Origin: Escherichia coli
GTDB taxonomy: Bacteria > Pseudomonadota > Gammaproteobacteria > Enterobacterales > Enterobacteriaceae
Direction: 5' to 3' (one strand)
Length of the DNA: 383 bases
NCBI RefSeq assembly: GCF_003334335.1
Contig: NZ_QOWQ01000200.1
The translations under genes and the position numbers were made by a program. Shown piece after piece: positions 1 through 383 of the stretch (position 1 is the first letter of the stretch; every line of letters begins with the position of its first letter). A model generated the notes under the pieces. It did no database searches, was not told where the DNA came from, and was given only the letters and a program-made list of their open reading frames with translations.

Positions 1-383
1 TGTGCCAGCGCCTGGCGTGCCGGTGGCGGCAGAATCAGCGACTGCATGGCATCACGCTTTTCCTCAATCCGGTCAAAAACCCCCACCACCTCGTAAGCCC
101 CTTCAATAACTTTCTCCACCACATTTCCCCGGTGCGGAACACGCACTTCCCCCAGAGACTGACCACAGACGCATCCGTTCTGACAGACGAACCTGAAGTA
201 ACCCGGCAGCATCTGGTAGCTGGAGGTACCGTCATGGGAGTTGAGCAGAATGATTTCAGGGACATGTTCTCCGTTTATCTCTCCGGCCCGCCGCAGACGC
301 AGCATATGTTTTGTGTATCCCCGGCGGCCCGGGTCGCGCACACGGGTCTGGCAGGCGAAGAATGGCTGAAAGCCTTCCCGCTG
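1..383 (-). CDS. Internal fragment of a DUF932-family (YfjQ-like) protein of unknown function; truncated at both window edges, with N-terminus beyond 383 and C-terminus beyond 1
   Basis: Seen in sequence: the minus-strand frame with codons starting at 383 (383-381, 380-378, ...) runs 127 codons to position 3 with no stop, while the other two minus-strand frames hit stops. The translation has normal globular-protein composition. Recognition from memory: motifs such as EGFQPFFACQ.RVRD, HMLRLRR, PEIILLNSHDG.SSYQM, GEVRVPH and VIEGAYEV.GVFD resemble E. coli YfjQ and its island paralogs. The frame is missing from the ORF track probably because it has no start or stop inside the window. Confidence 0.78.

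Follow-up and report, generated by a model that had tools for sequence, protein, structure and literature searches.

A DUF932 gene of Escherichia coli is carried by a genomic island at tRNA-Ser genes and was acquired horizontally

The window, that is, the whole stretch of 383 nucleotides analysed here, lies inside a single gene that is read on the minus strand. Positions 1–383 hold codons 57–183 of 272, with codon 57 at positions 383–381 and the first two bases of codon 184 at positions 2–1. Two reading frames run through the whole window without a stop: minus-strand frame 0 (127 codons), which is the frame of this gene, and plus-strand frame 2. Chromosomal copies with 100% identity are annotated in many E. 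coli genomes as "DUF932 domain-containing protein" (WP_001234732.1). In strain SMS-3-5, the full gene occupies positions 19733–20551 of segment L001 on the minus strand and encodes 272 amino acids. The protein matches the Pfam family DUF932 (PF06067) with E = 7e-52, residues 37–261 aligning with positions 2–227 of the 227 positions of the model, and phrog_12094 with E = 7.5e-130. The match to the NCBIfam model TIGR03299, a phage/plasmid-like protein subfamily, was partial, and its 17.2 bits fell below the curated cut-off of 110.7 bits; the protein is thus placed outside that subfamily and is only a distant relative. An Rfam search of the window returned no RNA families. The dN/dS of the gene is 0.07 against yfjQ and 0.13 against yafZ, its paralogues in K-12, with dS saturated; these values argue for an intact, real coding gene under purifying selection. 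The gene is a member of DUF932/UPF0380, the YafZ/YfjQ/YubP family, and as such a very common and already known accessory gene of E. coli.

The open plus-strand frame belongs to an ATG-initiated ORF of 291 amino acids (plus strand, frame 2; window positions 3–383, L001 19670–20545) that mirrors the gene. It spans nearly all of the 272-residue DUF932 gene, with codon position 2 lying opposite codon position 2. An ORF that is unbroken over the entire window and longer than the annotated gene might itself be taken for the true gene, or both strands might be coding; we give this reading practically no credence. The Pfam match falls on the minus strand, the substitution pattern is that of purifying selection in the minus frame, and the same antisense frame is broken by 4 stops in yfjQ, 5 in yafZ and 11 in yubP. 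Stops in the antisense frame correspond to TTA, CTA and TCA in the sense frame, and the gene holds a single such codon among its 22 leucine and 15 serine codons, compared with 4–5 antisense stops in the K-12 paralogues. The frame is open because this copy is almost free of these three codons, and the ORF is probably a non-coding by-product of codon choice. It was rejected as a gene on the ground that the frame is not conserved in the paralogues.

The surroundings of the gene were inspected at five loci that carry an identical window, in the strains SMS-3-5, 600468, 503025, ATCC 43896 and UMB200201_11. In all five, about 5 kb separate the DUF932 gene from a tRNA-Ser(GGA) gene. In SMS-3-5 and 600468, this tRNA gene is serW, next to infA; in 503025, ATCC 43896 and UMB200201_11, it is serX, next to ghrA. 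In K-12, both serW and serX are tRNA-Ser(GGA) genes. The gene is part of the same co-oriented module of roughly 10 kb at each of the five loci. Read from the far side towards the tRNA, the module encodes a GTPase, an Ag43/Cah adhesin, a 2.5-kb hypothetical gene, IrmA, DUF905 and DUF932, followed by a KlcA-like antirestriction protein, a RadC-like JAB protein, DUF987, a hypothetical protein, a YeeU/CbeA antitoxin and a CbtA toxin, and it ends with DUF5983, DUF957 and DUF4942 before tRNA-Ser. Across strains and sites, a 5.7-kb comparison of the module gives 97.6% identity. SMS-3-5 lacks DUF905, IrmA and the 2.5-kb hypothetical gene, which separate DUF932 from Ag43 in the other four strains (L001 20552–20877 in SMS-3-5, compared with L002 20552–24130); this gap is a deletion or a variant form in an otherwise 95–98% identical module.

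A genomic island of about 42 kb contains the module at its tRNA-proximal end. In SMS-3-5, the island measures about 41.6 kb and runs from serW to a gene for a tyrosine-type recombinase (integrase; L020 15700–16908), the last island gene before the adjoining clpA. The last 14 nucleotides of the tRNA gene recur in the stretch that separates the integrase gene from clpA, and comparison with the empty K-12 site gives an overlap of 18 nucleotides. The repeat of the tRNA end and the integrase are classical marks of an island integrated by site-specific recombination. K-12 has no island at either site: clpA lies 344 bp after serW, and ycdU follows serX.

The remaining cargo of the serW island in SMS-3-5 (L001 25232–40383 and L020 1–16908) is AT-rich, down to 36% GC. 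It includes a gene for the M subunit of a type I restriction-modification system and many IS elements, a gene cluster with a glycosyltransferase, glf and an O-antigen ABC exporter, and also an inovirus Gp2-type gene, a DUF3987 gene and a frameshifted gene with the primase domain of a TOTE system.

The gene is widespread and frequently present in several copies. By megablast, the window was found in 4468 of 5426 complete E. coli genomes (82%), and 958 gave no match. The 5426 genomes hold 12,597 matching places, all but 7 of them chromosomal; the median is 3 copies per genome and the highest number 14. The tRNA-Ser island, the integrase, the direct repeats and the use of alternative sites together support the conclusion that the gene is accessory and horizontally acquired. 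The initial annotation had proposed an accessory or mobile-element gene from base composition and codon usage. The proposal is borne out by the island at tRNA-Ser, its integrase and repeats, the absence from K-12, the median of 3 copies and the homologues on at least 5000 plasmids. A conserved core-genome context would have spoken against acquisition; the gene instead sits at serW or serX depending on the strain, and both of these sites are empty in K-12.

Gene context shows the acquisition far better than base composition does. The composition was compared with a host background of 300 kb from SMS-3-5 (six 50-kb samples with 197 long ORFs), which served as a stand-in genome because it carries a 100% identical copy; the reference set for the codon adaptation index (CAI) consisted of 30 ribosomal-protein and elongation-factor genes of K-12. 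The earlier count of about 225 G+C among the 383 bases, roughly 59%, was exact (225/383 = 58.7%). Background windows of 383 nucleotides have a mean GC content of 51.1% (sd 5.8%), with 3.4% of windows at or above 58.7%. The arginine, glycine and isoleucine codons had also been counted correctly: the window has 14 arginine codons (6 CGG, 4 CGT, 3 CGC and 1 AGG), 13 glycine codons, 5 of them GGA, and 6 isoleucine codons, of which one is ATA. The use of CGG in 6 of 14 cases, compared with 9.1% in the background, is significant (binomial P = 9e-4) and holds after correction for the 8 codons tested. That of GGA in 5 of 13, compared with 10.6%, gives P = 8e-3 and is borderline after correction. The single AGG (P = 0.26) and the single ATA (P = 0.38) correspond to chance expectation.

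Over the whole gene, the deviation becomes smaller. The GC content is 56.2% (90th percentile of the background) and GC3 is 60.8% (71st percentile). The CAI of 0.369 lies at the 33rd percentile, the background value being 0.406 ± 0.086 and that of the reference genes 0.68, and the Karlin codon bias relative to the average gene lies at the 85th percentile. The dinucleotide distance of the gene is reached by 14% of background windows. By codon position, the GC content of the window is 69.3, 42.5 and 64.6%, compared with 59.0, 40.7 and 56.2% in the background. About half of the GC excess of the window thus falls on first codon positions, because the protein is rich in arginine (11–12%, compared with 5.4% in the host). 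The argument from rare codons in the initial annotation therefore stands for CGG and GGA, which are over-used, but not for AGG and ATA, which occur at chance level, and CAI, GC3 and overall bias stay within the host distribution. That such codons are rare in highly expressed genes is equally true of most ordinary E. coli genes. The GC content does exceed the E. coli core level, as had been claimed; this deviation of the window is real but modest, and part of it follows from amino-acid composition. CAI was rejected as a sign of foreignness, since the gene lies at the 33rd percentile of host genes. The composition of the single gene is insufficient to call it foreign.

The module as a whole gives a different picture. 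At 54.7%, the GC content of the 9.8-kb module lies at the 99th percentile of windows of the same size. CGG makes up 24% of its arginine codons compared with 9% in the host, and TTA 2% of its leucine codons compared with 13%. Its distance in dinucleotide relative abundance is 134 (×1000) compared with 32 ± 12 in the background, in which no window is as high; with the repetitive Ag43 gene removed, the distance is 126 compared with 40 ± 15. The relative abundance of GpC is 0.98 (1.30 in the host) and that of CpG is 0.88 (1.17 in the host). The adjacent core flank is ordinary, with a dinucleotide distance of 31.6. The 9.8-kb module is clearly foreign in composition, and it is only at this scale that the compositional argument convinces; the single gene remains inside the host distribution. 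The remainder of the island is AT-rich (46.1% GC), and the island, with its GC-rich module, is therefore a mosaic. The unusual composition of the gene has two sources: an arginine-rich protein, by which GC at first codon positions is raised, and a foreign nucleotide signature that is common to the whole module.

Two other origins have to be weighed against acquisition with an integrative island. The gene could be native and vertically inherited, its GC content and rare codons being due to an arginine-rich protein and low expression. The gene-level percentiles for CAI, GC3 and Karlin bias, all within the host distribution, would fit such a gene, as would the share of the GC excess at first positions and the arginine content. 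Against this stand the tRNA gene, direct repeats and integrase that bound the island, the alternative island sites between strains, the multiple copies per genome and a dinucleotide signature of the module that is about 8 SD off that of the host. The polymorphism of presence and absence at serW and serX, with K-12 lacking the island at both, refutes native inheritance, which we consider extremely improbable. The gene could also come from a defective prophage, as the K-12 labels CP4-6, CP4-57 and CP4-44 would have it, rather than from an integrative island related to conjugative elements. The paralogous K-12 regions are indeed annotated as cryptic prophages, the protein matches phrog_12094, and homologues with about 39% identity are present in jumbo phages such as GAP32, CBB and fHe-Yen9. 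However, the annotation of the 42-kb island shows no genes for phage structure, lysis or packaging, and the neighboring KlcA-type and DUF905 families are also found in the leading regions of F-type plasmids. Homologues were found in 27 of 50,697 phage records, mostly of jumbo phages at about 39% identity and all below 60%, compared with at least 5000 plasmid records. With no annotated virion or lysis genes and with homologues that are overwhelmingly plasmid-borne, a true prophage origin is unlikely, although we would grant it slightly more weight than native inheritance. The jumbo phages with a DUF932 homologue (H57–H70 in our set, for example NC_019401.1 19936–20736) have genomes of 350–380 kb and infect Cronobacter, Yersinia, Erwinia, Serratia and Pectobacterium; in most of the records, the homologue lies within about 20 kb of the record start.

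The preferred reading, acquisition with an integrative island, agrees with the wide distribution of the family on plasmids. A tblastn search found homologues, at 61–63% identity, in at least 5000 plasmid records. Among the matches listed, 4,983 have 60–80% identity and 4,434 are on plasmids typed as conjugative, mostly from Escherichia and Klebsiella. In F-type plasmids, yubP is found beside yubQ (which encodes an SLT transglycosylase) and traM, where the leading region meets oriT; farther along lie hok, psiA/psiB, a ParB-like gene, DUF905, ssb, a methylase gene and an antirestriction gene. Among the families enriched in leading regions, DUF932 ranks third by size, with 4,661 members; counted in ORFs from oriT, its median position is 1, and it lies on the T-strand (Samuel et al. 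2024, PMC11541004, supplementary file 3). In the same file, the family carries the label "anti-restriction", for which a single member out of 4,661, with a Foldseek match to phage P1 Hdf, provides the structural support (PMC11541004, supplementary file 3); we consider this label weakly supported.

An alignment of 104 homologues with 36–74% identity was used to locate conserved residues. It places the most conserved core at residues 82–140 (window positions 132–308, minus strand). Five residues are invariant in the 104 homologues and present here: P29, C123, N125, H140 and G230. Three of them lie inside the window, namely C123 (positions 185–183), N125 (179–177) and H140 (134–132), all read on the minus strand. 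Nearly invariant are H82, R85, R87, E99, N104, H106, G108, G117 and G126. An AlphaFold2 model of the protein has a pLDDT of 93.6 and shows β-strands at residues 82–88, 96–104, 112–120 and 125–128, so that residues 82–140 are predicted to form the central β-sheet. A Foldseek search against AFDB50 retrieved DUF932/DUF945 proteins with TM scores of 0.9–0.98, which share its predicted fold. Sequence and profile searches of the PDB gave chance-level hits and revealed no solved fold related to the protein, PADLOC gave no hit for it, and in the literature on DUF932, yubP, yfjQ and yafZ we found no experimental functional study. The pattern of conserved Cys, Asn, His and Glu residues suggests a putative active or metal-binding site, which it would suit.

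What the protein might do can be approached through its relatives. In F-type leading regions, the ORF closest to oriT on the transferred strand is typically that of YubP ("F gene 32"), and DUF905 and KlcA-type genes are common to the island and to these leading regions. On these grounds, we tentatively propose that the protein may act early after DNA entry and may help a mobile element to establish itself or to evade host defense; such a function at the outset of mobile-DNA establishment is possible, though we would not call it probable. A more specific proposal is that DUF932 proteins are enzymes or metal-binding factors that would act first when mobile DNA enters, the island copies being retained establishment or anti-defense genes. 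This reading is compatible with the invariant Cys, Asn and His and the nearly invariant His, Glu and Arg residues in a fold unlike any solved one, with the plasmid member usually being transferred first and with the jumbo-phage homologues, but we regard it as rather doubtful.

As a whole, this account of the gene, its module, the tRNA-Ser island, the horizontal origin and the two sources of composition is, in our judgment, very likely the best explanation of the window. The finding re-identifies a very common E. coli island gene whose family already has a Pfam entry and a K-12 annotation, and in this respect it matters little; the window adds nothing beyond what was flagged for the DUF932 family in 2024. 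The counts of GC and rare codons on fewer than 400 nucleotides led to the right answer for partly wrong reasons, as amino-acid composition explains much of the signal and the CAI is ordinary. The DUF932 family itself is abundant, conserved, first at the F-type oriT and structurally unlike anything solved, which makes it a reasonable target for studies of mobile-DNA establishment.

Among the closest known systems are the paralogous islands of K-12. YafZ (b0252, in CP4-6) and YfjQ (b2633, in CP4-57) belong to the same Pfam family, have 273 residues compared with 272 here, and share 73–74% amino acid identity with the protein. At the nucleotide level, the identity is only 69–72%, and the gene represents a lineage distinct from yafZ and yfjQ. 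The neighborhoods are alike, with a GTPase gene upstream and genes for antirestriction, RadC-like JAB and DUF987 proteins and a CbtA-type toxin-antitoxin downstream; in K-12, however, the GTPase gene (ykfA, yfjP) lies directly upstream of the DUF932 gene, whereas Ag43 lies in between here. In K-12, too, a tRNA or tmRNA gene and an integrase delimit the islands, but the sites are others: CP4-6, which carries yafZ, lies at thrW and has intF at its opposite end, and CP4-57, which carries yfjQ, lies at ssrA, compared with serW or serX here. The island copies, including those of K-12, have a similarly raised GC content (55.6–57.8%). In CP4-57 of K-12 (L012 22920–23869), the antirestriction-like and RadC-like genes are now named lfgA and lfgB ("CP4-57 prophage protease"); this naming means that someone has already credited the JAB protein of the module with an activity. 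In E. coli Nissle 1917 cured of its cryptic plasmids, transcription of Ag43c and of the DUF932 gene (yfjQ in the authors' naming) was up, as confirmed by qPCR (PMC11056357), a result that hints that the two genes are regulated together.

A second likeness is to islands of the CP4-44 type, which carry Ag43 together with CbtA/CbeA. Their module of flu (Ag43), yeeS (RadC-like), yeeT (DUF987), cbeA and cbtA is as found here, and integration at a tRNA site with a tyrosine integrase and direct repeats is shared as well. In contrast to the island described here, CP4-44 of K-12 has lost the DUF932 and antirestriction genes, has yeeR between flu and yeeS, and occupies a site other than serW or serX.

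The third comparison is with the leading region of F-type plasmids, where YubP ("gene 32", UPF0380) belongs to the same family and has 61.5% amino acid identity over its full length. YubP is plasmid-borne, lies beside oriT and is the first ORF to enter the recipient, whereas no F-type oriT could be detected near the island copy; the F-type oriT region showed no nucleotide similarity to any part of the island. The two genes also differ in composition, yubP (L010 12001–12822) being AT-rich with 43.8% GC and a GC3 of 40%, compared with 56.2% GC in the island copy. This difference of 12 points of GC exists even though the leading region around yubP averages 56% GC. Common to the island module and the F leading region are three families: DUF932, DUF905 (YubL/YkfF) and antirestriction proteins of the KlcA/ArdB type.
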